64,000 nt of DNA from Candidatus Bathyarchaeota archaeon. GTDB taxonomy: Archaea > Thermoproteota > Bathyarchaeia > Bathyarchaeales > Bathycorpusculaceae. Within the stretch, counting starts at the first letter, position 1; every line of letters begins with the position of its first letter. The position numbers were made by a program, and so were the translations under genes. The DNA lies in NCBI GenBank assembly GCA_963707955.1, contig OY970176.1, forward strand, positions 608,001-672,000. Direction: 5' to 3'. Below are positions 1,733-61,751 of this stretch, one piece after another. Below the pieces are notes generated by a model. It was not told the DNA's origin and did no database searches. It saw only the letters and a program-made list of their open reading frames with translations.

Positions 1733-1827
1733 TTGAAGCTGAAACTCTCATTTCAGGCGAGAAAAATAAGTGTTCCTCAACGCCTTTAAACCCTTACTCC
1801 TAAATAATACGCTTACGGTTTCGAGGG

Positions 1828-4050
1828 TTGGAGAGAGAGTTGTCTGTTCCCCAACGGGTCCGCGGGGTCAGGATACTGAAGGCTGTCTCGTCACCTTTGA
1901 GGCTGCAGATTTTGAACTTGCTTTTTGACGAGGGCCCGCTTTCTTACACTGAACTGATGGGTTCTCTCAAGATGAACCCCAGCAGGGATGCTGGAAGGTT
2001 TGCGTACCACCTGAAATTCTTGCTCAAGGCGGACTTGATCGAAGCGGATGTCGAGGCGAGGAAGTATCGCTTAACCGAACTGGGGAAGATGGTCATTGAC
2101 GTTGCGGACAAAATTGATAAGAAAGCTTTCAAGCCGAGAAGTGCGCTTGTTCGGACGAGCCGTCTTGCACTTGAAGAGTTTGATGCTAACAAGATTGCGA
2201 GCTCGTTGACAAGAGAAGCGAAGATGCCTGCTGAGCTTGCGCAAAGAGTGGCCAAAGAAGCAGAGAAACAGCTGATTCGGGCAAGAACGAAGTATTTGAC
2301 TGCTCCACTCGTGAGAGAAGTCGTGAACGCGATCTTGATAGAGAAAGGCTTGGAAGAGTATCGACACAAGCTTACACGGTTGGGAATACCTGTTCACGAC
2401 GTGACCAGTCTTTTAGAATCGAGGAACATAACCCCTCACGAAACGGTCTCAGCGCAGGAATCAGCTGGTGAAACAGTCTTCAAGGAGTACACGCTGCTGA
2501 ACATTCTCCCAAGAGACGTTTCAGATGCTCACTTGTCAGGTTCCTTACACCTCAACGGCTTAAGCTCATGGATCCTGAAGCCTAATGAAATAATGCACGA
2601 CCTCCGATTCTTTTTAGGAAACGGCTTAGACCTGGAGAGAATTGACCCGCTGCAACAGTCCCAACCTGCACCTCAGAACTTTCAGGCCGCGCTTTCTTTA
2701 ACTTTCAACGTTCTTCTGCACAGCGCTAAAGAAGTCGACACCATGCAGACACTCGACTACTTCAACGTGTTCCTAGCCCCATTCGCCAAGGATGCTGAAA
2801 CCTCTAAGGTCAAAGAAGCTTTGCGGTTGTTCACTGCAAGCTTGGCTCAGCACGCACATGTTTCTCTAGGCCTGGAGCTGACTGTTCCAGACTTCTTGGC
2901 TGAGAAGCAAGCCGTGGGTCCTGGTGGAAAGCCTATCGGCACTTACGCAGATTTCACTGAACAGGTCCAGCTTTTGGCATCTCTCTTGCTTGAGGTCTTC
3001 GCTGAAGAGGGTAGCCGTAAGCCGCTGACGGACCCGGAGCTTGTCCTGAAAATCCGCGCAGAAACCACCTCGAATGAAAGAGCAAAAGCGTTGCTGCTGA
3101 AAGCTCACAGCCTAGCTTCAGAAAGAGGCGTTCTATACTTTGCCAACGCGCTCAAGAAGGAGAGGAAACATTCCGTTTTTTCTTCATCAGGGCTTGTGCT
3201 CGACACAGATTTGAGCGGTGACTGGGAAATTGACACGTTGCGCACAGGGTGTCTCGGAGTCGTAACGATCAATGTTCCGCGAATCGCGTATGAATCGTGC
3301 AGAGACCAGACAAAATTCCTTGAAATCCTAAAGGAAAGGATTGAGATGGCAGACAGGGCGCTAGAAATCAAACATAGGGCCCTGACGCATCGCGGCAAGA
3401 ATCTGCTGCCGTTTATCATGCAGGGCGGCAGTGGAGACCAATACTTCAGACTTGAAAGCTGTTCTCGCATAATAAACTTGGCGGGGTTGAAACAGGGTGC
3501 TGAGATGTTCTGTGAAAAAAGTGCTGGCGACGAAAAGACATTAGCCTTCTCAGCGGAAATCGCACGAGACGTTTCAGTCTACGTTCAGAAGATCGGCAGA
3601 AGACGCGGAAAACGCTTGTCCGCTGCGATGCTTCCCAACTGCGAAGCTTCTAAGAGACTGGCCCAGATGGACATCGAAAGGTACGGAGTTGCGAAAGTGA
3701 AGTTTTCAGGCGTGAGAGAGAAGCCTTTCTACTCCACTGCCAACCGAATACCGATTACCGGCGGAAGGGTCGCAGAAGAATCGTTGACGTTTGAAGATAA
3801 GCTGGCCGAAGCGCATGTTGGTGGAAGCCTAACGGTCGTCGACCTTGGCGAGAGCAAGCATGAGCCTGAAGAGCTTATGGCAATTACTAGACAGCTCACT
3901 GAAGGTCACAACGTAGACGTCTTCACTTATGACCGCAAACTCACCTATTGCGTCAGCTGCAAGAAAAGCTGGTTTGGCCTACTGCACAAGTGCCCCTCAT
4001 GCGGAGCGGTGGGAACGTTAGCCTTCCTTGACAGGTTCATGGGCACGTGA
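1828..4050 (+). CDS. ArsR-type wHTH + ATP-cone + class III (anaerobic) ribonucleotide reductase-like fusion, probably catalytically degenerate
   Basis: N-terminal SSPLRLQILNLL...LSYTELM...FAYHLKFL HTH; ATP cone (VRTSRLALEEFDANKIASSL...TAPLVREVV); NrdD-like HDLRFF, DTLRTG, TINVPRIAY and C-terminal CxxC...CxxC. Confidence 0.85.
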   Translation: MERELSVPQRVRGVRILKAVSSPLRLQILNLLFDEGPLSYTELMGSLKMNPSRDAGRFAYHLKFLLKADLIEADVEARKYRLTELGKMVIDVADKIDKKAFKPRSALVRTSRLALEEFDANKIASSLTREAKMPAELAQRVAKEAEKQLIRARTKYLTAPLVREVVNAILIEKGLEEYRHKLTRLGIPVHDVTSLLESRNITPHETVSAQESAGETVFKEYTLLNILPRDVSDAHLSGSLHLNGLSSWILKPNEIMHDLRFFLGNGLDLERIDPLQQSQPAPQNFQAALSLTFNVLLHSAKEVDTMQTLDYFNVFLAPFAKDAETSKVKEALRLFTASLAQHAHVSLGLELTVPDFLAEKQAVGPGGKPIGTYADFTEQVQLLASLLLEVFAEEGSRKPLTDPELVLKIRAETTSNERAKALLLKAHSLASERGVLYFANALKKERKHSVFSSSGLVLDTDLSGDWEIDTLRTGCLGVVTINVPRIAYESCRDQTKFLEILKERIEMADRALEIKHRALTHRGKNLLPFIMQGGSGDQYFRLESCSRIINLAGLKQGAEMFCEKSAGDEKTLAFSAEIARDVSVYVQKIGRRRGKRLSAAMLPNCEASKRLAQMDIERYGVAKVKFSGVREKPFYSTANRIPITGGRVAEESLTFEDKLAEAHVGGSLTVVDLGESKHEPEELMAITRQLTEGHNVDVFTYDRKLTYCVSCKKSWFGLLHKCPSCGAVGTLAFLDRFMGT

Positions 4051-46664: not shown

Positions 46665-46753
46665 GCGGGGTTGCCCTAACCTGGTAGGGGGCAGGCCTGC
46701 TAAGTCTGTGGCTGGAAACGGCCGCGTGGGTTCAAATCCCACACCCCGCGCCA
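46665..46753 (+). tRNA. tRNA-Ser(GCT)
   Basis: GCGGGGT/ACCCCGC acceptor, CAGGC-CTGCTAA-GTCTG anticodon arm, long variable arm, G discriminator, CCA. Confidence 0.93.
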
Positions 46754-46804
46754 ACAAAAACTTCAAATCGGGAAGACCTCCCAACATGTTTTAAGGAGAC
46801 AACT

Positions 46805-48136
46805 TTGGGAATCTACCGCTACGAAAGGCGCCTATGGCTCGCCGTTGAAGGACCTGAAGGAATCAAGAAGTCAAAGACGATCATCCCCCAGAACAAGAAG
46901 CTGCTGCTTAATTATGCTGAGTATCTCAAGGCCACCGGAAAGAGCCTTCCACGTCGAGACAAGCTAGTCAGAACCCTGAAGATCTTCGCAACTCTTCTAG
47001 GCCCAATACCCTTCAAACTTGCAACTAAAGAGAACATGATTCAGATCCTGGCGAAAGCTGAAGATCACTGGATGTCCGAGTTAAGCAAGAAGGGCAGACC
47101 TGGACCAGCTTCAGACTACACGCGCAGAGACTTCCAGGAAATAATCAAACAGTTCTACGCATGGCTCTTTGATGTCGAGGATCCACGCCACGAGGGATAT
47201 CCCAAGGTTGTTAGCTGGATACGCTCCAAGGCGCCGAAACAGAAGCTCAAGGCCTCCGATCTACTCACTCCCGCAGAAGTGAAGAAACTAATCAGCGTCA
47301 CACTGGACATGCGGCTCAAGGCTCTGATAGCCGTGTGCTATGAATGCGGTCTAAGGGTTGGCGAGGCTCTTCAGATGCACATAGGAGACGTCGAGTTACA
47401 AGAACAGTGCGGAACACTGACGGTGAGCGGAAAAACAGGACCGCGCGTAGCCTACTCAATCGAATCGTTACCATTGCTCATGCAGTGGTTAGATCAGCAC
47501 CCAACCCGAAACAACCGTGAAGCCTGGCTCTGGACAGATGACACGGAACCCTTAACCTACGATAGGGCCCGCTTCAAACTTCTAGAATGCAAACGAAAGG
47601 CAAACATACACAAAAGAATATTCTTCCATCTTTTCAGACACAGCTCGGCCACTTCTAACGCACAATTAGGCGAGTCCATGCTGCGTAGCATCTACGGCTG
47701 GAGCAAAAACAGCGATGAACCGAGCACCTACGTCCATCTCTCAGGAGAGACAGTTAAGAAAGCCTTACTCGAGAAAGCCGGCCTGAAGCAGAAAGCCCAA
47801 GAGGAGCCGGCAGTCATCATGTGCCCTCGCTGTGGAAATCCTAACCAACCGAACGCAAGTCTATGCATAAAATGCAAGGGTGTCTTGAAAATCCAGGATG
47901 CGGTTTCAATGAGCGGGCTCCTGGAGCAGGTTCAAAGACTGAATGAGAAAATCGAGAGAATGACTCCGGAATTCGCTCGGCATGAAGAACTATTCAGGAT
48001 CATGAAGAAGAAAGGTCTCGTCACAGAGATTAAGGACAAACCGGCTTCAGGGTCGGGCCAACTCTACACACCTTTTCGAATTCGCAGAGATACTAAAGAT
48101 GGAAAGAAGCAAGGTTTCTGCATCACTTTAGGTTAG
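46805..48136 (+). CDS. tyrosine recombinase/integrase with C-terminal Zn ribbon
   Basis: GLRVGE, GKTG, HLFRHS, YGWS, TYVH catalytic set; CPRC...CIKC. Confidence 0.93.
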   Translation: MGIYRYERRLWLAVEGPEGIKKSKTIIPQNKKLLLNYAEYLKATGKSLPRRDKLVRTLKIFATLLGPIPFKLATKENMIQILAKAEDHWMSELSKKGRPGPASDYTRRDFQEIIKQFYAWLFDVEDPRHEGYPKVVSWIRSKAPKQKLKASDLLTPAEVKKLISVTLDMRLKALIAVCYECGLRVGEALQMHIGDVELQEQCGTLTVSGKTGPRVAYSIESLPLLMQWLDQHPTRNNREAWLWTDDTEPLTYDRARFKLLECKRKANIHKRIFFHLFRHSSATSNAQLGESMLRSIYGWSKNSDEPSTYVHLSGETVKKALLEKAGLKQKAQEEPAVIMCPRCGNPNQPNASLCIKCKGVLKIQDAVSMSGLLEQVQRLNEKIERMTPEFARHEELFRIMKKKGLVTEIKDKPASGSGQLYTPFRIRRDTKDGKKQGFCITLG

Positions 48137-48334
48137 GGCTAAACCCTTGAAACTAGGCCTCTTCTCTTCTATAGGCCTCGTTCTTTGATTCTGCATTCTG
48201 CCACCTTGGCAGATTCGCTGAAAAGAAGACTTCACAGAACCCTTAGGGATAAAACTTATACTATCAAAGACGCCTATTAGCGAGGCAGAATATCTCCAGT
48301 ATTTTCACTGGCCATTGAAAAAGGAGGTTATGGA

Positions 48335-50896
48335 ATGGTCGATTTCAACAAGTTGCTCGGTAAGAAGAAACTGAGCAAAGTCTTGGATCCAATATTGATT
48401 TTCAAGGATCTCGATAAGGAAATTGGCAAGGAGGATCTCAGACTCCCCCAGGCTGCAGTTCTGAAAGACTGGCATGAGAAATGGAGAAGTAAGCGTGATA
48501 TCATTGTGAAACTGCATACAGGTCAAGGGAAGACTCTCATAGGATTGCTCATTCTCCAGTCATCCTTGAATGAAGGGTTTGGACCAGCTCTTTATGTCTG
48601 CCCAAATAAGTATCTCGTGAATCAAACCATCGAACAAGCTCGAGAATTTGGAATTCATACAGTTCAGTTCGCTCCAGACGTAACAAGGCCTCCCCAAACC
48701 TTCCTCAATTCGAACTCTATCTTGGTAACAAACTGCAAGAAACTTTTCAATGGAAAGTCAGTATTTGGAATTGCTGGGTCAGGCAGAGAGCCGATAAGCC
48801 TCGGCGCGATTGTGATGGATGACGCTCACAAGTGTCTTGACATAATTCGCGAGGCATTTTCAGTAACGGTTGATAGAACAGATGCTGATGGAAAACCCAA
48901 TCCGATGTACTCAGAGATTTGGGATTTGTTTAGGGAGTCTCTGGGAAGGCAGGCACCTGGAACCTGTTCAGATATTGAATCTGGCGAACCGAATAGCTTG
49001 ATGGCTGTTCCATTCTGGGCATGGCATAACAAACAAAAAGAAGTGCTGCAGACGCTTCGAACGCATAAAGAAGGAAAAGAACTACTATTCGTCTGGGATC
49101 TACTCAAAAACAGAATCGAACAATCGCTTTGTCTTTTCTCCGGAACGAGGCTTGAAATCGCTCCCCGAATTCTTCCAATTGATCTTGTACCAAGTTTTTC
49201 TCAGGCAAAGAGGCGCATCTTTCTTTCTGCAACGTTGACTGAAGATTCATTCCTAGTGAGAGATCTATTGATAGACCCAGAGAGCGTTTCTGAGCCATTG
49301 TCATCTGGTGACGTCAGCTATTGCGGAGAGCGGTTGATAATCATACCCTCTTTGGTTGATCTAAACCTCAGACGCGAACAGCTGATAAGATGGGTTTCCG
49401 CAATCGCAAGAAAACATGGGAGTTTTGGTGTAGCAGCAATAACCCCCTCCTTTGAGCACGCAAAGCATTGGGAAAAATACGGTGCCAAGGTGACGAATGT
49501 AGAGAATCTTGAGGAGGAAATAAGCAATCTTCAGGGAAGGATCAAGAAAAGGGAAGCTAAGGAAGTAATGATAATCGTAAACGAGTACGACGGCGTGGAC
49601 CTGCCAGACAACACTTGCAGGATTCTGACACTGGATTCTCTTCCGACCTATAGCTCTCTTATCGAAAGATTTGCTCAAGAAATGAGACCGACATCAGGGA
49701 TAATCAGAAGACATCTTGCGCAAAGAGTCGAACAAGGGATGGGTCGAGCGATTCGTGGGAGTAGCGATTGGTGTATAGTAGTCGTTGTTGGAAACAACCT
49801 GACTAATTTCCTGTCCGAGCATTCAAAGAGACAATTCCTCTCGAAGGAAGCCCAGATGCAGATCAAGATAGGAGAGGAACTCGCAAGTGAAATGAAACAA
49901 GAGGGAGCGGAAGTGGGAGTTGTCGAGAGACTCATTAATCAGGTTTTGAACAGGGAACCTGGGTGGAAGGAGTACTACAAGAAAGGAATGTCAGAAATTG
50001 GTGTCGAAACCATAAGCTCTGAAAATCTCAAACGTGCCATTTTGGAAAGAGATGCAGAGACATTCTACATTCAAGGGAATTTCAAAAAGGCAAAAGATAC
50101 AATTCAAGAACTAATCCAAATGTCGGAACAGACCGACAAAGGCTGGTATTTCCAGCTTATGGCTACCTACTTGTTCCCAATAGACAGCACAACCTCCATG
50201 GATATTCAGGTCAAAGCTCACAGCGAAAACAACCGACTTTTCCGCCCTGAAGCTGGGATAACCTACTCTAAGGTGACGGCAACTGGAAGCAACCGCGCTT
50301 CACTTATCCTAAGCTGGATGCGCACGTATGACTCCTACAATGCGCTCTTGATTAATCTTGGGAGTATTCTGGATAGAGTAGCGTTTACGGCACCTTCTGA
50401 GTCTTTCGAAGAAGGGATGAATGAATTAGGCAAAGCTCTTGGATTCTTGACTGATCGACCAGAGAAGGCTTCTGGAAGCGGACCCGACGATCTATGGAAC
50501 ATAGACGGTAAGAGATACTGGATAATCGAATGCAAAAACATGATTTCGTCGCAACGCAAAGAAATCACTAAGAAAGAAGCTGGGCAACTTGGCAATGCTA
50601 TCGGATGGTTCAAAACTAACTACAAGGATTGTGATGGAACCTATGTCTTTGTTCATCCAGCAGATGTGTACGCAAAAGATGCATATCCGCCGGAGCAGAT
50701 ATGGTGTCTAAACCCTCAAGGTCTTGACAAATTGAAGAAGAACGTTATGGCCTTCTATGTTTCCATGCAAAGTACGCCTCTTGCAGATGTCTCCGAAAAT
50801 TTGATTCGCAAAAAGCTGACCGAGTTTAGTCTGGAAACGAGTGTTGTGGCGACATCCTACCTAAAACGTGCAGAAAAGGGTCAGGCTTCAAAATAG
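48335..50896 (+). CDS. SF2 (DinG/XPD-like) helicase fused to C-terminal PD-(D/E)xK nuclease; Hna-like defence protein
   Basis: LHTGQGKT, DDAH, SAT, QGMGRAIR; GPDDLW...IIECKN. Confidence 0.8.
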   Translation: MVDFNKLLGKKKLSKVLDPILIFKDLDKEIGKEDLRLPQAAVLKDWHEKWRSKRDIIVKLHTGQGKTLIGLLILQSSLNEGFGPALYVCPNKYLVNQTIEQAREFGIHTVQFAPDVTRPPQTFLNSNSILVTNCKKLFNGKSVFGIAGSGREPISLGAIVMDDAHKCLDIIREAFSVTVDRTDADGKPNPMYSEIWDLFRESLGRQAPGTCSDIESGEPNSLMAVPFWAWHNKQKEVLQTLRTHKEGKELLFVWDLLKNRIEQSLCLFSGTRLEIAPRILPIDLVPSFSQAKRRIFLSATLTEDSFLVRDLLIDPESVSEPLSSGDVSYCGERLIIIPSLVDLNLRREQLIRWVSAIARKHGSFGVAAITPSFEHAKHWEKYGAKVTNVENLEEEISNLQGRIKKREAKEVMIIVNEYDGVDLPDNTCRILTLDSLPTYSSLIERFAQEMRPTSGIIRRHLAQRVEQGMGRAIRGSSDWCIVVVVGNNLTNFLSEHSKRQFLSKEAQMQIKIGEELASEMKQEGAEVGVVERLINQVLNREPGWKEYYKKGMSEIGVETISSENLKRAILERDAETFYIQGNFKKAKDTIQELIQMSEQTDKGWYFQLMATYLFPIDSTTSMDIQVKAHSENNRLFRPEAGITYSKVTATGSNRASLILSWMRTYDSYNALLINLGSILDRVAFTAPSESFEEGMNELGKALGFLTDRPEKASGSGPDDLWNIDGKRYWIIECKNMISSQRKEITKKEAGQLGNAIGWFKTNYKDCDGTYVFVHPADVYAKDAYPPEQIWCLNPQGLDKLKKNVMAFYVSMQSTPLADVSENLIRKKLTEFSLETSVVATSYLKRAEKGQASK

Positions 50897-51141
50897 CCGG
50901 TCTCGTGTGCGAGCCCTCTGGATAGACATGTCTAGATACGTCAATAGTAGTATCGCTATTCCTTAAACCCGAAGCGAATTGGTATTTATGGGAGATATCC
51001 GTTTGAGTGTAAATACGTCACCTCAACCAGGGTCCATTTGCAGCCAAGCTGGCTGCAATAGGCATGGTTTCCTCAGGCTAGCGGCACTATTCATTTTATC
51101 TGAGAAAGACTCTTACATAAGATCGTATATACGGTTACTCG

Positions 51142-51224
51142 GAGGGGGTTCCCCAGTGGTCACGGGGGCTCGCTTGTCAACCGAGTGCCGTAGGGCTGCG
51201 CGGGTTCGACTCCCGCCTCCTATT
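51142..51224 (+). tRNA. atypical tRNA-like gene: long variable arm with GTC anticodon
   Basis: D-arm CCCC-AGTGGTCAC-GGGG, anticodon arm CTCGC-TTGTCAA-CCGAG (C:C mismatch), V-arm GCC-GTAG-GGC, T-arm GCGGG-TTCGACT-CCCGC; weak acceptor stem, no CCA. Confidence 0.65.
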
Positions 51225-51864
51225 TTGTATATTTTGGTCAGGCTATGAAGAGAGTACGCGCGCTAGATGGTTATAAGCAAAATTCGTGAACCAAATTAGG
51301 AAGGTTAGCCTCTTCATGCAAACAATGCTTTGCCTCTTTTTTTCAGTCACAGAGGTCACTCTCATTTTTCGAGGACATTTCAACTCGTGACTGCGGGCTG
51401 ACAAATGAGTTGACACGATGTATATATAATACTCGAAGACTCCATCCCCTTGAACAGCCTCTATGTCAAAGCAGTGACAATTCTGGAGAACATCAGGCCA
51501 GCTCTCGAGAGTTCATGGGTTTCTAGCGTCTTTAGGCCTCTAGAGCCTCGAGGACTTGCGAGCGCCCCCGAGACATCTCGAGATGATTCTCACATATTTC
51601 GAAAGCGTCGAGTTCTGCATACCCTCTGATACAGAGGTTTCCCCGAGCCTTTTTTGCTTCGAGAATTCTGCAGGCCTTCTGCAGGAGGTCTCGTCAAGTC
51701 CTCTTGATGTCGGGAGTGATACTCAAGATGTCTCGACAGTCTGGAACAAGAATGCCTTGCTTCGTTTTCTTTGCATAAAACGAAAGTAGACTTTAGCTAA
51801 TCTGTGTGCTCTGAGAACCTGCTTTCCATGGTGACACCACGGTATCAGTGACCCCCATTCTTCT

Positions 51865-51904
51865 AGGGGTCCAAACGTGGGCATTGACCCGAGCGACCCC
51901 ACCA
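51865..51904 (+). repeat. degenerate direct repeat A ending in tRNA-Pro-like 3' end
   Basis: aggggtccaaacgtgggcattgacccgagcgaccccacca. Confidence 0.65.
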
Positions 51905-52240
51905 ATAGCTTATTATACAGAATAAAGCTAGATCAGCCGACTATTTTTAAGAAGCAACGTCGGACACGGGTTTGTTCCTGAGGGTCGGGTGGCGTTGCCT
52001 TCACAGGTTCATGCAATGCGTTTTTTCGCATCGTGATGCAGCGGATGAAGTTGGCACTATTATCGTCTTAAGTTGTAGACCTGGTTGGTTCTGTCGGAGT
52101 TTGAACGCAGCTTTGTTACCGCATTCTGAATCGTTCTCGCATTATGCCAGAGTACCTCGATCTGATATTGTGCTGCCGATTTCTCAACTGCGGCCATTTT
52201 CGAACGAGGCGTATGAACTCTCGATGTACGCTTATGCCAT

Positions 52241-53176
52241 CTAGGGATTCAGTGTGGGAGTCAGAGACAACTTCAGGTTTCTAAGGAACTCATTTACCTC
52301 CTTGATTAGGCCAGTGCTTGCTAATGAAGGGAGAGACACTATTCCAGTAAGAAAGGAGACAATCTGTATCAAGTCGGCCGCCGTACTGATGGTCTTGTTC
52401 AAATAACGTTTTGCTTCTTTCGCTTTGGTTGAACCCTGTTCTTCCAGTCTTGTTGCGACAGCTGCCACTATTTGTCTGATTTCGTCCTGCCTATTCAATA
52501 TTGTCTTAATCTGTCCTGGAGTCTTGGAAATTTCCGCCAGGATAGCACTCCCCATTTCCTTGATTTCTCTGATGCCTTCTTCTGCTCTCCCTGCGCTTCC
52601 AGCGAGTACCTTCTGTTTTTCAGAGACGTCTTCGATTACGTCTATTATTCTGTCTAGTCTTTCTAATATCAGTAAATCGTTGGCACGAGTCATATTCAAT
52701 AGATGCAATTCACGCTTGGTTTCATTGAAAGATGTCTGTTGCCCAACCAGTACATAGCATTTGCAGCCTGAAATGTCAAATGCATACTTGTCAGTAGATT
52801 TTTCCGAGACAATTCTATCTTCACAATCCATCAGGCTTCGCGACTTATCATCGCTGATGATCTCTCTTTTCAGAAACGTCAGATAGGTGTCCATCTGAAG
52901 TCTTTCTTCTGTGCTGAGATCCTCGAGTTCTCCAAAGTAGATGTTAGCTTCTGTGGCAGATAGCACGCTATGAAGGCCACTTGCGAGATGAACTACAGGC
53001 TTGTTGCGTTTGATTACTGGATCTGACCATATTAGGAAGCAGAAGTCTTGGAACATGCTGAAAACTATCGGCTTGTAACCTGATCTTTGTTTGATCTGGA
53101 TAGGTGCGATAGTTAGTGATTCGTCCACTGCCGATCGAAAGATGAAGTATTGGGTCCCCTTTAAACCGACAACCAC
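52241..53176 (-). CDS. hypothetical protein with coiled coil and C-terminal hydrophobic helix (possibly C-terminal part of a fused gene)
   Basis: 311-aa ORF whose frame stays open upstream across the end of the preceding ORF. Confidence 0.65.
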   Translation of the reverse strand: MVVGLKGTQYFIFRSAVDESLTIAPIQIKQRSGYKPIVFSMFQDFCFLIWSDPVIKRNKPVVHLASGLHSVLSATEANIYFGELEDLSTEERLQMDTYLTFLKREIISDDKSRSLMDCEDRIVSEKSTDKYAFDISGCKCYVLVGQQTSFNETKRELHLLNMTRANDLLILERLDRIIDVIEDVSEKQKVLAGSAGRAEEGIREIKEMGSAILAEISKTPGQIKTILNRQDEIRQIVAAVATRLEEQGSTKAKEAKRYLNKTISTAADLIQIVSFLTGIVSLPSLASTGLIKEVNEFLRNLKLSLTPTLNP

Positions 53177-53205
53177 TTTCTCTGGACTATTCCCAGTTAT
53201 CCAAA

Positions 53206-53886
53206 CTATCTCACGCGATATATTGGTTGCCCCCTCTCGTCTTTTCCGAGTTCTTCAAGATCCAGTGGCGTTTTGTGCAGACCTTCCTGCGCGATTATTC
53301 TGTTCGTCTTCTGCATTGATCTTAACAAATCACAAGCTCTTTGGAGAAGTTTCTTTCCCGCATCTCGAGTTTGTTTGAATGGTGAAAAGAATAGAGACGT
53401 CCCAGTCCTGAGTAGAGATGCTAGTTCACTGAAGACTCTGTGTTCAACAGTTCCCTCAAAATATCTGTTTGTAGCGGTTGTGAACGCATCAGCCAATGCT
53501 TGGAGTCTGGAGTAGGACGGTTGTGTGTCACTTTCTATGGTTCCTACCAGTCCCTCAAAATACTCGTCTGGGTCAACGTTGCCATCAAGAACATGGTTGG
53601 TGGCAGCCACCATCACTTCCTGAATTTGATCGCCAATAGGCTGAAGATCCGCATGCAATATCATGAGGTACATTTTAGCTTTTGGAGTTAAGTTGAATCT
53701 CTCACTGCGTCCCTCGAAGGAAATGTTCGCAAGACCGTAACTGACACACGACTTGAGTATGGCGGACGCAACATTTCGGCTAATACCAGTGCTATTCACG
53801 ACTTCGGTTATGTTCCGAGGCTCTTTCTCGTCGAGCGCACCAAGACATTCAACGAACTCGTCAAGCCATGGTTTTGTTCGACTCAT
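53206..53886 (-). CDS. N-terminal winged-HTH protein
   Basis: PRNITEVVNSTGISRNVASAIL...FNLTPKA; GGAGGTG SD upstream. Confidence 0.65.
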   Translation of the reverse strand: MSRTKPWLDEFVECLGALDEKEPRNITEVVNSTGISRNVASAILKSCVSYGLANISFEGRSERFNLTPKAKMYLMILHADLQPIGDQIQEVMVAATNHVLDGNVDPDEYFEGLVGTIESDTQPSYSRLQALADAFTTATNRYFEGTVEHRVFSELASLLRTGTSLFFSPFKQTRDAGKKLLQRACDLLRSMQKTNRIIAQEGLHKTPLDLEELGKDERGQPIYRVR

Positions 53887-54074
53887 CTGCCATTTCACCT
53901 CCTGATTTGTATTACTTGAACGCAAGCATTCGCAAAGGGCAAATGCAATGCATGCATTGTATGCATTGCGCCCATAAATATAAATGTTTCCCTCACCCAA
54001 AAGCACAGTATGTTACAATGAGCTACTTCTCACCAATTGCTTCAAGTTGAAGTCTCGCCAGAACCCCAACCCGA

Positions 54075-55604
54075 TTAGTTTTGATAGTAATTGAACGCTA
54101 ATGAGTACAATGCTCCAGGACTGGAAGCGCTTTGGTCTGTTCTTATCAGTTTGCATGCGCTGTCTAATATTTTCCTCGGTTCAGCTTTGACAGTAACCTT
54201 ATTTTGAGAGAGTGTATCCATGGTTTCCGTGTCTGTTGGAAACGATGGGTTTCTTTCTTTTTTGAAGATTCCCCCGAGAATTCGGTCATTATTCTCTGCT
54301 ATTCGAGTCCCAATGTGAAGAGCAGCATTTGAGATGCAGTCCATGCACTGTATGTGTGATTCGTAGATGTCCTCTTCTACTCGTTTATGTTCAAGAAGAT
54401 ACTTCAGTAACGATGTGCTTTCATTTTCGATTTCGGAAAAACAGCTAGCTGCCTCTTCGGCATATTCTCTAGGAAGACTCGACAACTTCTGAATGGAGTT
54501 GTCTGAGTTAGCGTTTACGTAGGCGAGGACAATTGAGATTCTCAAGAGAACACCTGTGAAAAATCTCGAATTCCATCTCAGCCTCTGCGAATCGGGCCGC
54601 ACTCTGGCAACTGCTGGTTCAAATACATAGTCTTTCATAGCTCGAATATATGAGGTGCCTGCAATTCGCAAGGCGATAATATCCATAAGCGATTCGTAGA
54701 GGTGTCTCGTAAAAGGTTTGTTTGTTGCATATTCAACAAAACTCTGTGGGGTTGGGGCGTTCAGAGTATCCTGCCATTTCTTGAAAGGACAGAAACTCAT
54801 GTTTTTGTTGAGTTTGGTATTGCAGCCTCCCATTATTTCCAACAACTTCTGTCGCAGACCAAAGATACATTCGAGTGTATCACTTAGTACAGTCACAGAC
54901 TCTGGAGCGAGCGAGCGTGGTCTTCCAAGCTCATCAAAGCTTGTCTGACATGCTGCGTGCGAGATCTCATGTGCGAGTATTAAAAGTCCCTGAAGATTAT
55001 ATTTAACATCCATAGCAAGATTCAGATGAAAAGTCTTGTGAAGAAGTGTGTACCGGCCCCCCGGAAGTGATTGTTGCAGTTGAAGTTCAGACCAGGAAAC
55101 AAACTTGTCCCATCTCACTCCTGACATGTTCAGGTATGAGAGATAGTTGTTAACTAGTTTATCAGCAGCTACCAAGTAGAGTTCGTTTCCGCAACTTCTT
55201 TCAGGGCTGAATGGAATGCCAGCTATTATGTACGGAAGCTCCACACTATCTGTTCTCTGGAAAAAGCCCGATTTTATGAACGACACGATTCTTGCTATTT
55301 TCTCTATTGCATATTTTGCATCTGCGATGGCGATCATTTTATCGCTGTCGCTTTGTTCAGATTCATTCTCCTCGCTTCCTGCGTATCTTGTAACCTGACT
55401 TGAGAAAAATCTAATCTCGTCATCCAACCCTCCCTGACCAAAAATATCAGGGAGGATATCGCTATTTTCAAATGCCTTGCTGGCGAATTTCCATCGGTCT
55501 TTAAGTGTTAGATATTCACTCAGAAGACCTCTGTACTTGCGGAGAACGTCTCGGAAGACTTCATCAGAGCATGCATATCTGTCAGTCTTTATCAAGGATC
55601 TCAT
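54075..55604 (-). CDS. HEXXH-motif (zincin-like) protein
   Basis: ILAHEISHA plus downstream YESLMDIIA (ExxxD). Confidence 0.65.
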   Translation of the reverse strand: MRSLIKTDRYACSDEVFRDVLRKYRGLLSEYLTLKDRWKFASKAFENSDILPDIFGQGGLDDEIRFFSSQVTRYAGSEENESEQSDSDKMIAIADAKYAIEKIARIVSFIKSGFFQRTDSVELPYIIAGIPFSPERSCGNELYLVAADKLVNNYLSYLNMSGVRWDKFVSWSELQLQQSLPGGRYTLLHKTFHLNLAMDVKYNLQGLLILAHEISHAACQTSFDELGRPRSLAPESVTVLSDTLECIFGLRQKLLEIMGGCNTKLNKNMSFCPFKKWQDTLNAPTPQSFVEYATNKPFTRHLYESLMDIIALRIAGTSYIRAMKDYVFEPAVARVRPDSQRLRWNSRFFTGVLLRISIVLAYVNANSDNSIQKLSSLPREYAEEAASCFSEIENESTSLLKYLLEHKRVEEDIYESHIQCMDCISNAALHIGTRIAENNDRILGGIFKKERNPSFPTDTETMDTLSQNKVTVKAEPRKILDSACKLIRTDQSASSPGALYSLAFNYYQN

Positions 55605-56451
55605 CCAAAACTATCTGTTTTTCGAACTTCAATACAGTCCCAGTCCAATTGGGTGGTCCCGAAGATCTGAAGTTCTTTCGCATTTGCTTTATTACTTTTA
55701 GCAGGGCTTGTGGCGAGGATCTTTTGGTGTCTCTTGCGAGATCAAAGTATCCAAGCCGATATCTTGTGCCGCGATATCGAATCATTTTTTTAAGTAGCGC
55801 ATTGTCACCAAGCTTTACGTTAATGGTTCCAGAAACAACATCCTTTTTAGGTGCCTCTGTATGCTGATTACATATTATCATGAAAGTGCAAAAATCTCTT
55901 GCAAACTTGGTTCTCGCCCTGACAGCGATAATAGACCTAGATAGAGCGTCATAACTTTCACCCTCGAGTTTCAACAGGTAGGATACAAAACTCGGATTCC
56001 ACATGAAATGATAGCCGATGTTTGGATGCTTCTTCTCTATATGTTTCAGTGCTTCCAGAATGTCTGAGAGGTCGTTATTAGCAATCCTAAAAACCGAATA
56101 CGCTCTATATGGCGGGAGAGATTTCGGCCTTTCTCCTGACCATTTATGGCTTCGCATCGGAAAACAAAGCAGTGATAGAAAGGAGCCTTCGAAAGAACGA
56201 GCCCTGAAGAATTCTTTCCGAATCGTATTTAGTAACTCAAAACCGGCTTCAGGGGACGCAGGTTGGATGTCAAAAACGTAGTCAAATCTTCCAAAGCATA
56301 CGCCAAAAAAGCTGGGCACACTAGAATTCTCTTCTAGGATTCTTAAAATCCTTGACTCCACCATGCGCAAATTCCTAGTGAGAACGAAGGTGACTATTTC
56401 TGGGACTGGCGAGATTAGAAGTTCTTGCGTACCTTCTTGCGCGTTGCTCAA
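55582..56451 (-). CDS. hypothetical protein with Lrp/AsnC-like ferredoxin-fold repeats
   Basis: CFGRFDYV and RLGYFDL (GxxD) motifs; overlaps the HEXXH gene start. Confidence 0.55.
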   Translation of the reverse strand: MSNAQEGTQELLISPVPEIVTFVLTRNLRMVESRILRILEENSSVPSFFGVCFGRFDYVFDIQPASPEAGFELLNTIRKEFFRARSFEGSFLSLLCFPMRSHKWSGERPKSLPPYRAYSVFRIANNDLSDILEALKHIEKKHPNIGYHFMWNPSFVSYLLKLEGESYDALSRSIIAVRARTKFARDFCTFMIICNQHTEAPKKDVVSGTINVKLGDNALLKKMIRYRGTRYRLGYFDLARDTKRSSPQALLKVIKQMRKNFRSSGPPNWTGTVLKFEKQIVLDEILDKD

Positions 56452-56964
56452 GAGACATGCACCATGCCAAAAACTCGAGATAGCTCAGTTCCTCTTACTT
56501 GCGGTTTCTTACAGATCGACGTGGTCTATCAAAATCCCCTCATTCACCTTCATATGAAGGAGAGAAAAACGACTCGCCTATCCGTGGATCCCTTGATTTT
56601 GCCACGAGTCTTGTACGCCTATCCAGCTCACCCTTGGGAGGGGGTAGAGTGACCACATACTCACGGATGCGTTCAAGACGAATTCTTAGTTTGCGATCCA
56701 CGCATAGTCCCACGGCTCCCTTATCCGGTGATACTGTATTATGTCTTGTGAAACCAGAATAATGATTCCTGACCATCTCTAGCACCAAAGAGCTGTTTTC
56801 TTACTAGAAAACTAGCAAGTTAACTTAAAGCTTTCTACGACGCGGTCACCTCGGTCATCTACTCCACAGCCACTGTTCCAGTTCGGGCACCAACACAGCG
56901 CCGATTAATAGGATTTTCCGGAACGCGTAACGGAGTAATCTTCAAGGAGCCCTATAGCATAATG

Positions 56965-57005
56965 AGGGTTCAAACGCGGGCTCTGGACGCCAAGCGACCC
57001 CACCA
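56965..57005 (+). repeat. degenerate direct repeat B ending in tRNA-Pro-like 3' end
   Basis: agggttcaaacgcgggctctggacgccaagcgaccccacca. Confidence 0.65.
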
Positions 57006-57233
57006 TAACTACAAAGGTTTTGTCACAGCTACTTCTGCGTTTTATGTTTATAAAACGAAGCTCAACAGGTTGTCCTAGAAAGTCCAAAATGAGAAAAAGT
57101 ACTGAAGAGAATACTTCGAAGTTGTCCTTCAGAATGGTTGATGGGAAGACGCGAAATCTTCAGACCTTTCGCTCTGAAGCTTTCCTGCTTCCTCATGTGC
57201 AAAGTAGCGTTTCCGTTTTCTGACAAGATTAAT

Positions 57234-58292
57234 CTATGACAAGGTTCGTTGTTCCAGAAAACCCAAGACGCGTCCAATGGTTTCACTGTAGGAAAGAGTT
57301 GTCCTCGCACCTGCCGCTCTGGAATTAGGACCTCCGCCTCCGAGGAATTTCGCAAGAGGTCTAACATCGTATGGAGCAAAAAGACATCGAAAAACGACTT
57401 TCCCGTTTTTATAAGCAACATAGAGAGCATGGTCTTTTTCTCGTTCGCATACGTCACTAATGAAATTGATACTTGAAAAATAGAGATTGCAAAACTTGAC
57501 TTTCAACCCGCTTCTGAAAAACACATCATACTTATCCTTGAGGAACTCCTCTATTCTTGAAAGGTCTTCTTGATATTTTTGTAAAGCGAACGATAACTTG
57601 GTATCTTCGTGCAATAGTTTGTTTATGTTGTTTGCCAGACATGCATCAAGAAAAGAGTCATAGGTATATTCAGGGCCTGCTGTAGCAATCGAAGCTCTAA
57701 CAACCTTGGCTAAGGACATTAGCTTTGATGTTATTACGGATTCCAAATCGAATCGGTCAATTAATCCCATTTTCTTTATGAGATCGAACATCTCAAAGCT
57801 ATCTTCTATGCAGTAATCTTGGGCAGCGCCTATTCCTCCCACCCAGCACCTTTGACTAAAAAAGTCGCGGTCGATATTCATGAGGATTTTCCATACTAGA
57901 GCTGAGGAGTTGAGGAAGTCAACATTGTCTAAGTGGGGATTGCAATCAATGAAATTCCTATCATTAATATGGAGAATATCATGGTGATCAAGATTCATTA
58001 TTCTTGTTTCTTTTAAGATATCTGAAAGATAGTTTGTATACTGCTGCAAGGGGCTGTCTACTATAATCAAGTACTTAGGTTGGCGGTCCTTGATGGACTT
58101 TAGAATTTCATAGTATTGACAAAATCTAGATGGATATGAAATCTCTGCACGAACACCATATTTCGATACAAAATAGGCATTCAATAAAACGCTCGCACTG
58201 AACCCGTCGTGGTCAGCATGTGACATTATCATGCAATCACGAGGCGAGATTTCCTGCAAAATAGCAACAACATTTTTGAGATTTTCAGTCAT
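57234..58292 (-). CDS. DHH/DHHA1 family phosphoesterase
   Basis: HADHDG, IIVD, LDHHD, GGGGPNSRAAG. Confidence 0.88.
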   Translation of the reverse strand: MTENLKNVVAILQEISPRDCMIMSHADHDGFSASVLLNAYFVSKYGVRAEISYPSRFCQYYEILKSIKDRQPKYLIIVDSPLQQYTNYLSDILKETRIMNLDHHDILHINDRNFIDCNPHLDNVDFLNSSALVWKILMNIDRDFFSQRCWVGGIGAAQDYCIEDSFEMFDLIKKMGLIDRFDLESVITSKLMSLAKVVRASIATAGPEYTYDSFLDACLANNINKLLHEDTKLSFALQKYQEDLSRIEEFLKDKYDVFFRSGLKVKFCNLYFSSINFISDVCEREKDHALYVAYKNGKVVFRCLFAPYDVRPLAKFLGGGGPNSRAAGARTTLSYSETIGRVLGFLEQRTLS

Positions 58293-58307
58293 AAGACAAG
58301 CCTCGCA

Positions 58308-59993
58308 TTAGAAGGCATCGTCCACACACGCGAAGTTCGATGCACTTACTTGTCGATGCAAACCTAGTCTGGCAACATAAGAATAATGAGCCATTCGTTT
58401 TTCAACTTTAGTCATTAGAACCTCTTTTTTGAATTCGTTGGGATTTCTAATGAGATCAATGATTTCTGGAAGTGTTAAAAAGTATATGTCTTTCTCATGG
58501 ATCAGTTTACTTGAGGTAAATTGCTTGCCTGCTAGAGTGAAGAAAGGTCGAATAATAGACAGGTTACGGATCCAATGGTGATGATGATTATCTCTTTCCT
58601 GAGAAAGTTTCCTAGCTGCATTCAACGTGAACGTAAAGCTTTCATTATCAGAAACACCAAGTTTACCCTCAACAAAATCAACTGTTTGTCCAAACTTAAG
58701 CTTGTTCTCCTTAAGAGATACATGTTCTTTAGTTTCGTGATCAGACTTTCTAATTGCAGAAAGCATACCAATTGCATTCGATATGGGATCGAAATAAGGA
58801 TCTCTTGTCCGTATCCACCACCAATTGTTAGTGTGGTTTTGTAACCGCTCTAGCCAATCGCGACCATCTGGTATTTTGGCAATGCTACCCATTATTGTTC
58901 TTTCATCCTGCGCTGAAAAGATCTGATCCTTGATTTCCTCTGAAGCACTTTCAAGCAGGCGTGACGTTTCGATTGCAAACCTATTAGAAATTACTATCTC
59001 CTTCACGTCAACTGGCCTTAATAGAATGCTCATGCAATCGGCAACAGTTGCATTATCCCTACAAGCCTTTGCTACCAGTTCACGTAGACGCGGACCGACG
59101 ATGTCATCGCCCATTGATTGTATTAGATATGTGTGGGAAAAGAACTCGTTATGTACTGCCCACCAAGAGATAAAATGCTCAACAAGCTCAGGAGAGACTG
59201 CCTGTTCGCTGGTTAATACACTCTCAAATCTTGCGGTCGCCTTGTCGAAGCTTTCGTATACTTCTTGAAGCCGGTGCAGAAACCAACCCCAGTAAAGGCT
59301 ATCATTTTGGATAAATTTCTGAGAAAGTCGCTTAAGTAACCGGCTTGTCGTTTGAAACTCGATACAAACATTTTGGTGATACCTGACATACAGGGGCGAC
59401 AAATCTTCGAAGCCAAGAGCATGGGGAACCCTTTCAATTCCGCCTCCTATCAGAGAGCGCTGAACAAAAGATCCGTATATCTCTGGCCTTGGCGTAATCC
59501 ACTGGTACTCTTTTTCCTTGTCCGGGGCTTTCCAAGCATAATCTATCCGTTCACACAAAGGCAGAGTGAGGAACACTTTCTGTGCAAAAACTGGGACGCT
59601 ATTTCCAAATATCGTAAACCTGGTAAGAGCGTCATTTTTGTTTTCCGTGCTCAAGAGTCCTTCCAAAATATGTACCTGGCCGTTTGTTCCATCTACTTTG
59701 ACCAACATACCATCTTTCAGCAATATCGTAGCATTTTGCGTTCCTGTGACACAGGGAATAGCTCTCTCCCTCGAAATAACAGCCGCATGGCAAGTAAGAC
59801 CACCACTGTCAGTAATGATTGCTGAGCATTTTCCCATAGCAAGGACCATATCGGGATTTGTCATTCGAGCGACAATGATATCTCCCCTTTCAACCTTTTT
59901 CAAGTCAGCATTGCTAAAAACTATTCTTACTCTTCCCTCCGCACTCCCACCACTTGCCGGAATGCCTGTTATGATTTGCGTTGGTTTGCTCAT
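58308..59993 (-). CDS. PEP-utilising phosphohistidine swivel domain fused to a helical substrate-binding domain
   Basis: GIPASGGSAEGRV, GGLTCHAAVISRE, VDGTNG at the N-terminus; C-terminal DIYFLTLPEI reminiscent of rifampin-phosphotransferase-like proteins. Confidence 0.8.
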   Translation of the reverse strand: MSKPTQIITGIPASGGSAEGRVRIVFSNADLKKVERGDIIVARMTNPDMVLAMGKCSAIITDSGGLTCHAAVISRERAIPCVTGTQNATILLKDGMLVKVDGTNGQVHILEGLLSTENKNDALTRFTIFGNSVPVFAQKVFLTLPLCERIDYAWKAPDKEKEYQWITPRPEIYGSFVQRSLIGGGIERVPHALGFEDLSPLYVRYHQNVCIEFQTTSRLLKRLSQKFIQNDSLYWGWFLHRLQEVYESFDKATARFESVLTSEQAVSPELVEHFISWWAVHNEFFSHTYLIQSMGDDIVGPRLRELVAKACRDNATVADCMSILLRPVDVKEIVISNRFAIETSRLLESASEEIKDQIFSAQDERTIMGSIAKIPDGRDWLERLQNHTNNWWWIRTRDPYFDPISNAIGMLSAIRKSDHETKEHVSLKENKLKFGQTVDFVEGKLGVSDNESFTFTLNAARKLSQERDNHHHHWIRNLSIIRPFFTLAGKQFTSSKLIHEKDIYFLTLPEIIDLIRNPNEFKKEVLMTKVEKRMAHYSYVARLGLHRQVSASNFACVDDAF

Positions 59994-60117
59994 GTGGATG
60001 ATTCCAATTGATCTATTAGTTTATTTGCAAGAAGCTAATATTTGTATTTTGCCTGGTCACTTACGTGAGGCAGATTCTAGGATTAACATATAAGGCACAG
60101 ATAATCCTTCATTATTT

Positions 60118-60861
60118 ATGGCATTTCCAGTGGAGTTTGAAAGCTATGAAGTTTTCAGGATTATTCTACCTGGATATTTAGCATTGGGTGCTATCTTGCT
60201 CTCTTTGTACAGCTTCTCAATTACTCAACCGTTTTTAATTGACTTCTCAATAGCCTTAGGTCCGACTGTATTATTAGCGTCTATGATTGGATTGGGCTTG
60301 TTCCTGGGTCTAGTACTGTATGATTATGATCACCCACGACGCACCGGTTTCTATAAGACTCGTATAAGGACATCTCTGCCTTCCTTGCATTTGAAAAATA
60401 TCCTTTGTGATTCGTGCAATCACAAATGTAGGAATGCAATTGGGGATTCAGATACTGCAAGCTCGACGTATTTCTATTTATTCTACGGCTATTTTGATTC
60501 TAGTTCGCAAAAGACTGCGAATTTCTTTGGATCCATTTATAGAATATTCGCAGACATGCGGGCTATATTTGGATTAATATGGGTAACTCAGCTGTCATTT
60601 GGTCTTTTTGATTTGGTTCCGCTGATTATGAATGGTGCAATTGTGAGTCCTTCTCTCACTGCGGTTAATCTGACACTCTTTGTGGTTTTCCTACCATTGT
60701 GGCTACGTTTACATCCTGAATTCTATTCTAACCGATTGAGCAAAGGTGACCAATATATGCTCAATGCGATTAATTTCCAGAAGAGGTATCTCGATTTGAA
60801 GATTAACGATTTTAGAGGCTTGATATGTCTTCCGCCGACAAACAAGATGGCGGAGTATTAG
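60118..60861 (+). CDS. integral membrane protein (about 4 TM)
   Basis: Hydrophobic segments; YEVFRIILPG N-terminus; CxxCxxxC in the loop. Confidence 0.7.
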   Translation: MAFPVEFESYEVFRIILPGYLALGAILLSLYSFSITQPFLIDFSIALGPTVLLASMIGLGLFLGLVLYDYDHPRRTGFYKTRIRTSLPSLHLKNILCDSCNHKCRNAIGDSDTASSTYFYLFYGYFDSSSQKTANFFGSIYRIFADMRAIFGLIWVTQLSFGLFDLVPLIMNGAIVSPSLTAVNLTLFVVFLPLWLRLHPEFYSNRLSKGDQYMLNAINFQKRYLDLKINDFRGLICLPPTNKMAEY

Positions 60862-61034
60862 AGATCTTAACACCACGATATCTCCAGCGTGCGCTAAATG
60901 AGGATTTGTCTTGGTAAGCTATTGATATTGAAGTCTCAAATAGTTCGTAATCCAGCCTTAATCATGTTGCCATCTACACTGGTTTTTACTGCGTGCGCAT
61001 GCGAGAGAACGCTGGTAACGCGCTTTTGATTTGT

Positions 61035-61214
61035 CTTTCGTTTTATTGGAAAAAAACGAAAGCTTCAGTTTCTTCGCATAAAACGAAAAGATACCAAGGA
61101 AGTACAGAAAAACAGAACTTGAGAAGAAAAACACGCTTCGCCCCTCTCTCGTTTCTTTTGATTTCTGGACAAACATATATGTTTGTCATGTTCGTTTTAT
61201 GTAAATAAAACGAA
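61035..61214. repeat. cluster of palindromic sites CGTTTTAT-N4-A(T/A)AAAACG plus a perfect 20-bp palindrome
   Basis: Sites at 61039-61058 and 61193-61212 (also 57038-57057); GACAAACATATATGTTTGTC at 61168-61187. Confidence 0.7.
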
Positions 61215-61751
61215 AACGTTATAACTACTTATCGGCGACAAAAATCGTTTTCACAGAAGAAAATCCAGATTTGGAGATTGGACAAAATCTCACACCCCGC
61301 GCCAATTCCGCGTGTTATTTGAAATCTTTCTTTAGCGCGCTGCCTTGTCGCTTTATTATGCGTGCACACTTGAACAGCCACGTAGCCCCGCATCCAACAT
61401 GAACGGCTTCATCGTTTTCAACGATGCTCGTCGACTGTATATGCAAAATGTATATGCTTTTTGTATATGCTCTTACGTGCGCGCTATTGGCGAATTCAGG
61501 GACAAGCCAGCGCGCGGGCTAAACAGCTAGAAGAGGAAATGCCAGAAGAAGAGGAATGAAAGTGAAAGATTGGGAAAAGCGAACTATTCGCAAATATGCT
61601 AATATGGGAGTCCTTGACCACCGCGTTGACTGTGATTATTTTGTAACGGGAAAGTCTGATATACATTACGGTCATTTCATATTCAGAATTAGCGCGCGCG
61701 ACAACAACCGCGTAGATGAATCAAACAGTGATTTAGGAAAGTGAGAGCATC

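Follow-up and report, generated by a model that had tools for sequence, protein, structure and literature searches.

A tRNA-like gene with an apparently leucine-derived body and an aspartate anticodon on an integrated element of a Bathyarchaeota genome

What is a transfer RNA (tRNA) gene that combines the long variable arm of a class-II tRNA with the GTC anticodon of aspartate doing on an integrated element of an archaeon? The question is raised by a tRNA-like gene of Candidatus Bathyarchaeota archaeon (assembly GCA_963707955.1, contig OY970176.1), whose genome is a single contig of 2.35 Mb; coordinates on this host genome carry the prefix G000. The window, meaning the whole stretch of DNA that was analysed, comprises 64,000 nucleotides (nt) at positions 608001-672000 of that contig, and all coordinates without a prefix refer to it. 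An initial annotation described the gene as a chimeric tRNA with a Ser/Leu-type body inside a defence island. It proposed that the RNA could insert serine or leucine at Asp codons, or else be an uncharged decoy or sensor acting with an adjacent helicase-nuclease, or a decaying pseudogene. The comparisons reported here make it very probable that the gene belongs to a conserved, mobile family of tRNA-Leu origin in which the anticodon varies, and that it is neither a tRNA-Asp nor a product of decay nor the partner of the helicase.

ARAGORN calls four tRNA genes in the window, one of them as tRNA-Asp(gtc) at 51141-51224. The Rfam tRNA family RF00005 matches 51142-51224 with 29.5 bits, a borderline score in view of its gathering score of 29 (the E-value for the window is 0.044) and the lowest among the 36 host matches above the Rfam tRNA cut-off. 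The gene and its parts are laid out as follows.

51141..51224, + strand: the tRNA-like gene (ARAGORN; Rfam register 51142-51224; body identical in the metagenome contigs L030 and L031)
51174..51180, + strand: anticodon loop TTGTCAA, 7 nt, with the anticodon GTC at 51176-51178 (cmscan alignment)
51187..51196, + strand: long variable-arm hairpin of 3 base pairs (bp) and a 4-nt loop (identical in the alignment with tRNA-Leu(TAG) of related families)
51099..51120, + strand: promoter-like region, a purine-rich stretch and then the TATA-like CTTACATAA (alignment with the metagenome homolog; 33 host tRNA upstream regions)
51223..51235, + strand: T-rich terminator-like tract (sequence; homolog alignment)

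The complete arms, the long variable arm, the TATA-like box and the T-rich tract are all present in the sequence as first described. The D arm has a 4-bp stem and a 9-nt loop with G18G19, and the variable region counts 14 nt including the hairpin. Judged by the list of positions that make tertiary contacts in tRNA, the cmscan alignment and the sequence show the expected bases to be kept (U8, A14, G18G19, G15-C48, the T-loop UUCGA and G53-C61). The acceptor stem reads, in the Rfam register, G1.U72, A2xA71, G3.U70, G4-C69, G5-C68, G6.U67 and G7-C66. It thus contains three Watson-Crick pairs, three G.U pairs and one A x A mismatch, short of seven paired positions, and it is followed by the discriminator U73 with no encoded CCA. 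Two non-standard pairs are flagged in the alignment, A2xA71 and C31xC39 (51173/51181). The cmscan alignment hence agrees with the initial annotation on a class-II body with an Asp anticodon, on the weak acceptor stem and on the C-C opposition at 31:39.

G51141, one base ahead of the Rfam register, is conserved too, and an eighth acceptor pair is possible. In the resulting 8/4 alternative 51141-51148 pair with 51216-51223, the T stem shrinks to 4 bp and A51143 pairs with T51221, so that the helix holds five Watson-Crick pairs, two G.U pairs and one G x A. With folding energies of -25.5 kcal/mol for 8/4 and -26.1 kcal/mol for 7/5, the two registers are thermodynamically indistinguishable, and the conserved G51141 fits the 8/4 arrangement without proving it. 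The shifted register turns 3:70 into A-U, as against G3.U70 in the Rfam and homology register. Some other identities were considered for the gene and set aside. An intron within the long arm is rejected, as the arm is base for base that of tRNA-Leu and shows no bulge-helix-bulge motif. The gene is not read as tRNA-Sec (the anticodon is not UCA), as tRNA-His (G-1 stands opposite U73, not C73) or as tRNA-Thr (the acceptor pairs differ from those of host tRNA-Thr). Other Rfam families gave chance-level matches only in 51000-52300.

Full-length matches in 100 related genomes are exclusively tRNA-Leu(TAG) genes, at 74-76% identity; nine of the 11 retrieved matching loci are called tRNA-Leu(TAG) by ARAGORN, and the remaining two were identified by eye as tRNA-Leu genes with introns. 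In the alignment with tRNA-Leu(TAG) the D loop is the same, the variable arm is identical (nine relatives) and the T arm is near-identical; with archaeal tRNA-Leu(UAG) and tRNA-Leu(UAA) alike the gene also shares its length class and the tertiary-contact bases. Going by these alignments, the body is descended from a class-II tRNA-Leu and is of Leu rather than Ser type. The Leu half of the original Ser/Leu assignment therefore stands, with a variable arm and D loop matching tRNA-Leu(UAG) of related families, and the Ser half does not: the arm is of Leu type, position 73 is U instead of G, and the anticodon is GTC. Six acceptor and discriminator positions differ from tRNA-Leu (C2A, C67U, C70U, G71A, C72U and A73U), and the anticodon stem and loop are altered as well. 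A tRNA-Leu(TAA) of another family has the U8-U9, CCC and GCGGG stem features in common with the tRNA-like gene, and the stem differences from tRNA-Leu(TAG) therefore need not be recent compensatory changes. A73, present in tRNA-Leu of the host and its relatives, is a requirement of archaeal leucyl-tRNA synthetase (LeuRS), and its loss should weaken leucylation. The gene thus lacks both the A73 and the Leu anticodon of a tRNA-Leu, and it lacks the short class-I variable loop of a tRNA-Asp.

Does the gene fill a gap in the tRNA set of its host? Introns interrupt many host tRNA genes, and ARAGORN, with the intron option on or off, finds no other tRNA-Asp in the genome. A scan for GTC anticodon arms locates a class-I tRNA-Asp at about G000:599000-599115. 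An intron interrupts its D loop, its acceptor stem is rich in GC and paired throughout, and it has G73 and a CCA of its own; the lack of a second ARAGORN call is a detection gap. The host tRNA-Leu(TAG) at G000:1126018-1126135, with a canonical intron and an encoded CCA, is mis-called by ARAGORN as Pro(agg), and an intron-bearing tRNA-Leu(TAA) (G000:1526864-1526990) and tRNA-Ser(GGA) (G000:595140-595250), seen by eye, are uncalled. The host tRNA-Asp and tRNA-Leu(TAG) are separate genes and both are intact. With genuine tRNA-Asp and tRNA-Leu present elsewhere, the tRNA-like gene is an extra gene and fills no gap. It has only the GTC anticodon in common with the class-I host tRNA-Asp, whose anticodon arm is unrelated, and it differs from host tRNA-Leu(UAG) in having no intron, no encoded CCA, a non-Leu anticodon and a different anticodon stem. 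Automatic annotation would leave it as the sole 'tRNA-Asp' of this host, which is a warning to annotators.

The acceptor end is unusual in this setting. Among the 33 other host tRNA genes CCA is encoded in 26, and U73 is found only in three tRNA-Thr and tRNA-Cys; host tRNA-Ser(GCT) and tRNA-Ser(CGA) have G73 and a tRNA-Ser(TGA) call has A73. G3.U70 is the main determinant of alanyl-tRNA synthetase (AlaRS) and occurs in that set only in 3 tRNA-Ala. The tRNA-like gene is like tRNA-Ala in having G3.U70 in the Rfam register, and the commonest member of its family has the Ala anticodon AGC. In contrast, tRNA-Ala is a class-I tRNA with A73, G1-C72 and G2-C71, where the tRNA-like gene has U73, G1.U72 and A2xA71. 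The host also encodes an archaeal RNase P RNA (187 bits) and four anticodon-binding domains of class-I synthetases, the number that the Ile, Val, Leu and Met enzymes would account for. Run records place its sequence in freshwater-sediment metagenomes, and none of the 9 runs listed is an RNA run.

The main evidence for a conserved family comes from a scan of metagenome contigs with the D arm and T loop of the gene, which retrieved L030 and L031. From G51141 to four bases past the 3' end, the gene on these two contigs matches the host gene base for base except in the anticodon loop, where CTAGCAC with a closing G-C pair stands in place of the host's TTGTCAA and C x C opposition. This homolog is named Ala(agc) by ARAGORN, and its Rfam score is 31.7 bits. 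All 75 body positions outside the loop are the same in host and homolog, whereas the loop together with 31:39 retains only 4 of 9 positions and accounts for all five differences. The flanks have diverged far more than the body: 33 of the 51 proximal upstream nt are identical, as are 58 of 102 alignment columns over the upstream 101 nt (35-43% divergence), and homology is lost downstream. At the upstream rate, the chance of finding 75 unchanged body positions without selection is about 4e-19, and five random changes would all fall within 9 of 84 positions with a probability of about 1e-5. Because the flanks are diverged and the body is unchanged, the body appears to be under strong selection; the pattern is not expected without it. 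With all changes confined to the loop and 31:39 and the rest of the body intact, random decay into a pseudogene, as raised by the initial annotation, is not supported.

Contigs of four further runs (X4, X5, X8 and X9) were compared over the region. A contig of X4, another sample of the same study, covers 51040-51183 and matches the GTC loop without a difference, which answers the concern that the anticodon might be a sequencing error. X5 contains the AGC form of the L031 type, and X8 and X9 contain the AGC form with no body change and with a second 3' flank that is roughly 20% diverged. One X8 contig (151 nt, depth 2) reads GGA and has 11 differences in 78 bases, up to six of which are not itemised. 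Changes are seen in the 3' anticodon stem and one in the long arm, and 51190-51224 is identical, including the odd acceptor strand. This single low-depth contig suggests a third anticodon version. A 7-nt loop with Y32, U33 and A37 is kept in all versions (GTC, AGC and GGA).

The TATA-like CTTACATAA at 51112-51120 occupies -30 to -22. Host tRNA genes are preceded by similar boxes of the CTTAAAT type, and the promoter-like region has a partly conserved counterpart ahead of the metagenome homolog. Runs of T follow at 51223-51226 and 51232-51235, and the first 4-7 bases past the gene are conserved in the homologs. It is thus plausible from these motifs that the gene has its own archaeal-type promoter and terminator. 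A stretch of 22 nt of the promoter region recurs at 59318-59339; that copy falls inside a coding region and is treated as chance.

The distribution of the gene is sporadic. DNA searches covered all 331 remaining genomes of the host's family (10 of them from its genus), 400 class genomes, 100 genomes of relatives and 350 phylum genomes, in sets that overlap; they yielded no close copy and returned only ordinary tRNA-Leu (74-76%) or partial variable-arm and T-arm matches. A pattern scan for GTC with the same long arm in a one-genome-per-species collection gave 17 matches, about the number expected by chance, with 0 of the 17 on a tRNA call, and each of four pattern scans of viral contigs gave 0 matches. 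The initial annotation had named the lack of homologs keeping both GTC and the long arm as evidence that would count against it, and none was in fact found. As the homologs keep the whole body with other anticodons, this changes the reading of the gene and does not refute it. In L031 the AGC gene lies 243 nt downstream of a homolog of Elp3 (849-2441, minus strand), a member of a tRNA U34-modifying enzyme family. This Elp3 is 70% identical to that of the host and at most 81% identical to that of any sampled genome, and the L031 organism belongs near the host's family. No tRNA-like gene lies downstream of Elp3 in the 12 nearest sampled relatives of the L031 organism (12/12 without it) or in the host, and the adjacency is probably coincidental. 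In L030 the AGC homolog is convergent with a gene for a membrane, coiled-coil protein of 278 amino acids (aa) (532-1368, minus strand). This protein has no Pfam match and no host homolog, shows no similarity to the downstream 311-aa gene of the window, and matches the PADLOC model of a reverse-transcriptase-associated membrane protein (E 2e-10); no reverse-transcriptase gene is visible on this short contig. In host and metagenome settings alike the tRNA-like gene is an accessory gene with a patchy distribution.

The host copy is carried as cargo by an integrated element of 14.5 kb, which was inserted at tRNA-Ser(GCT) and spans 46665-61305 of the window. Its landmarks are these.

46665..46753, + strand: tRNA-Ser(GCT), whose 3' 21 nt (46734-46754) form the left attachment-site repeat (ARAGORN; Rfam; repeat search)
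46805..48136, + strand: tyrosine-recombinase integrase (Pfam Phage_integrase, E 1e-18)
48335..50896, + strand: 853-aa superfamily 2 helicase, the PADLOC PDC-S28 candidate defence gene (Pfam DEAD, ResIII, Helicase_C_2; PADLOC E 9.5e-288)
61285..61305, + strand: right attachment-site repeat, 20/21 bases identical to the tRNA-Ser 3' end (repeat search)

The GC content drops to 41-45% over 52-62 kb. Of the defence island first proposed, the mobile island is real and the defence content is confined to PDC-S28, the only gene on the element that matches a defence model. The tRNA-like gene sits within a stretch of 1.35 kb without a convincing open reading frame (50897-52240). A different host tRNA, a minus-strand gene near G000:550540-550660, has its 3' end repeated in two degenerate direct copies 5.1 kb apart, at 51845-51905 (including 51889-51904), within that stretch, and at 56950-57005 (including 56990-57005); these copies are probably attachment-site remnants of other elements nested in the island.

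Other features of the element may be recorded here. The integrase has a zinc-ribbon-like stretch at its C-terminus, and a D...ExK-like stretch near residue 730 of the helicase, seen by eye only, suggests a C-terminal nuclease. A partly palindromic 27-nt repeat of the type TTCGTTTT...AAAACGAA is present in five copies (51759-51785, 57034-57060, 61035-61061, 61062-61088 and 61189-61215), each about 30-250 nt from an attachment-site repeat or remnant; these repeats may be binding sites of a recombinase or regulator. A run of six genes on the minus strand (52241-59993) may be an uncharacterised cargo module. Four of its products have no Pfam family (311, 266, 509 and 289 aa). Of the others, one (352 aa) belongs to the DHH family, and a PEP-utilising 'mobile' domain is all that is recognised in the second (561 aa). 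None of the six genes matches a PADLOC model.

How does the gene compare with known oddities among tRNAs? On sequence features, the RNA is most similar to the allo-tRNAs and the nev-tRNAs and is a member of neither family. The allo-tRNAs of Mukai et al. (2017, PMC5389517) combine a long arm with G73 or U73, and their anticodons correspond to 35 codons, GUC being one of the most frequent. The long arm with G73 or U73 is taken there as Ser identity, and some allo-tRNAs with a G3:U70 pair inserted Ala in E. coli. Many are encoded near toxin-antitoxin or transposon genes and in soil and sediment metagenomes; inducing them is toxic, and they are reported there only from bacteria (Clostridia, Proteobacteria and Acidobacteria). 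By that account the tRNA-like gene is like them in its class-II body with a long arm, in U73, in anticodons unrelated to identity (GTC, AGC and probably GGA), in the G3:U70 of its Rfam register, which some of them carry, in the stem-destabilising changes seen in many of them and in its mobile-DNA surroundings. In contrast to them it is archaeal, and it lacks the Sec-like D arm (long stem, tetraloop) described there, having a standard 4-bp stem and 9-nt loop instead. Allo-tRNAs are there defined by an 8/4 or 9/3 acceptor branch, whereas the tRNA-like gene is of 7/5 tRNA-Leu descent with 8/4 as an alternative of equal energy.

The nev-tRNAs (Hamashima et al. 2012) are described in a review (PMC4033280) as nematode-specific tRNAs that retain Leu identity elements and are leucylated. 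The tRNA-like gene resembles what is described there in combining a Leu-type class-II body with class-I anticodons, and in forming a conserved gene family poorly suited to normal decoding; it differs in being archaeal and in having lost A73. A literature search, with supplements outside its scope, found no report of wrong-anticodon class-II tRNAs in archaea. The table of the 2014 review (PMC4033280) gives class-II tRNAs with a wrong anticodon for nematodes only, and in a 2022 review of archaeal genetic-code oddities (PMC9499178) the terms 'variable arm', 'allo-tRNA' and 'missense' have no match. The gene thus looks like a new archaeal variant of a known tRNA oddity.

Several explanations compete with that of a maintained accessory gene. 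The initial annotation named, as one alternative, a decoy or sensor acting with the adjacent helicase-nuclease, and the arrangement invites such a reading: the helicase gene ends 246 nt upstream of the tRNA-like gene, on the same strand and within the same mobile island. In PADLOC no Hna model matched at E <= 0.01, and the PDC-S28 model matches the helicase over its full length. PDC-S28 is modelled as a single-gene system, and the closest full-length relatives of this helicase (37% identity) are on bacterial plasmids of Rhizobium, Klebsiella and Salmonella, with only two distant homologs (25-27% identity) in 400 genomes of the phylum; the helicase gene looks like one acquired by transfer between domains. 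At four PDC-S28 homolog loci (two archaeal, two on bacterial plasmids), the surrounding 1.5-2 kb or so contain neither a tRNA nor a tRNA-like gene. The neighbours of the AGC homologs are Elp3 and the membrane protein, not a helicase, and the RNA has its own promoter-like box. A sensor, decoy or guide component of the PDC-S28 helicase-nuclease is accordingly very improbable. Equally improbable is the reading that a host tRNA gene is in ordinary decay here, or that faulty assembly or sequencing produced the GTC. It would account for the borderline Rfam score, the mismatches in the acceptor and anticodon stems and the insignificant fold z-scores, but the host tRNA-Leu(TAG) and tRNA-Asp are intact and different genes, the body is perfectly conserved in other organisms and X4 reproduces the GTC loop. 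A relic carried by mobile DNA, whose identical body would reflect the recent lateral spread of an attachment sequence or a captured tRNA gene with no present function, is improbable as well, if less so. Its sporadic distribution would fit, as would its place in an ORF-poor stretch (ORF, open reading frame) of a mosaic island with two tRNA 3'-end remnants and five 27-nt repeats. Recent transfer as a block would nevertheless leave the flanks identical to the same degree as the body, and the upstream 50-100 nt are 35-43% diverged. The confinement of the changes to the loop would be a rare accident, and there is no attR-type repeat.

What remains is a choice between a gene that decodes and one that does not. 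The gene is tentatively read as a functional, selectively maintained accessory tRNA-like gene with a Leu-derived class-II body and remodelled identity-bearing parts. A fair number of observations weigh against this. All 33 other host tRNA genes have acceptor stems with 7/7 pairs, from which the tRNA-like gene is a clear outlier; position 2:71 is mismatched in both registers, and the C x C at 31:39 occurs in the GTC copy only. Folding predicts structures of lower energy than the cloverleaf (-33.4 to -36.7 versus -25.5 to -26.1 kcal/mol), though a genuine tRNA-Leu of a relative also misses its own cloverleaf, by 5 kcal/mol, and the fold z-scores (-0.5 and 0.05) are not significant. The A34 of the AGC form is not found among the host Ala anticodons. 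A search of the host for a dedicated synthetase paralog found a single AlaRS and a single seryl-tRNA synthetase (SerRS), with no extra copy. The loop divergence of 5/9 is not greater than that of the flanks (p = 0.34), and the loop may be unconstrained. The comparison as a whole consists of one divergent sequence pair and contig tables, which is too little for covariation. Finally, allo-tRNAs with destabilised stems are inactive in translation, and a non-translational role has been suggested for them, according to PMC5389517.

Much of this is what would be expected of a non-decoding tRNA-like RNA, in which the body would matter and the loop would drift. A tRNA-binding factor would recognise the body, and the RNA could serve, for instance, in regulation, as a decoy, as a signal for processing or as a place where mobile elements prefer to insert. 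The weak, mismatched acceptor stem with U73 and no CCA, the C31xC39 of the host copy, a loop diverging at a rate compatible with neutral flanks and an A34 unused by the host all point that way, as does the suggested role of destabilised allo-tRNAs. Homology to L031 also ends a few bases past the 3' end, with different accessory DNA in each genome, as at tRNA insertion hot-spots. On the other side, every version retains the 7-nt loop with Y32, U33 and A37, and two lineages with 3' flanks about 20% apart share one and the same AGC loop. The 3' end of the gene has no second copy in the window, and hence there is no attachment-site pair, and no protein partner is conserved, with two different neighbours in the two contexts. 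A non-decoding role is on this balance unlikely, and a decoding role, itself possible without being probable, stands slightly ahead of it.

If the tRNA-like RNA does decode, its transcript would have its ends processed by RNase P and RNase Z and would then receive CCA. Charging would be weak or conditional and would depend on a synthetase that ignores the anticodon. LeuRS is a less likely candidate because A73 is lost; AlaRS acting through G3:U70, or SerRS acting through the long arm plus U73, would be likelier. The codons GAC and GAU would then be read as a residue other than Asp, with Ala or Ser the likeliest if the RNA is charged, and the RNA would be the archaeal equivalent of the bacterial allo-tRNAs and the nev-tRNAs of nematodes. 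Strong activity of this kind would be toxic, and weak, conditional or element-controlled expression would therefore be expected. A more far-reaching version, which is distinctly unlikely, is that archaea carry 'programmable' missense tRNAs on mobile DNA, in which an invariant Leu-derived scaffold is charged regardless of its anticodon and the anticodons are swapped (Asp here, Ala or Ser elsewhere). If true, this would amount to deliberate mistranslation of chosen codons, for example as a toxin, addiction or abortive-infection function of integrative elements. It would also be the first such system in archaea, arisen independently of the bacterial allo-tRNAs.

The combination of an invariant body, three anticodon versions and remodelled acceptor identity positions makes this family an unusually clean natural experiment, at a time when the role of wrong-anticodon class-II tRNAs in bacteria and nematodes is unsettled. 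If the RNA is not charged, it would be a new conserved tRNA-like RNA whose partner is yet to be found. If it is charged, it would bear on how archaea maintain or bend the genetic code, and on mistranslation as a weapon of mobile elements.

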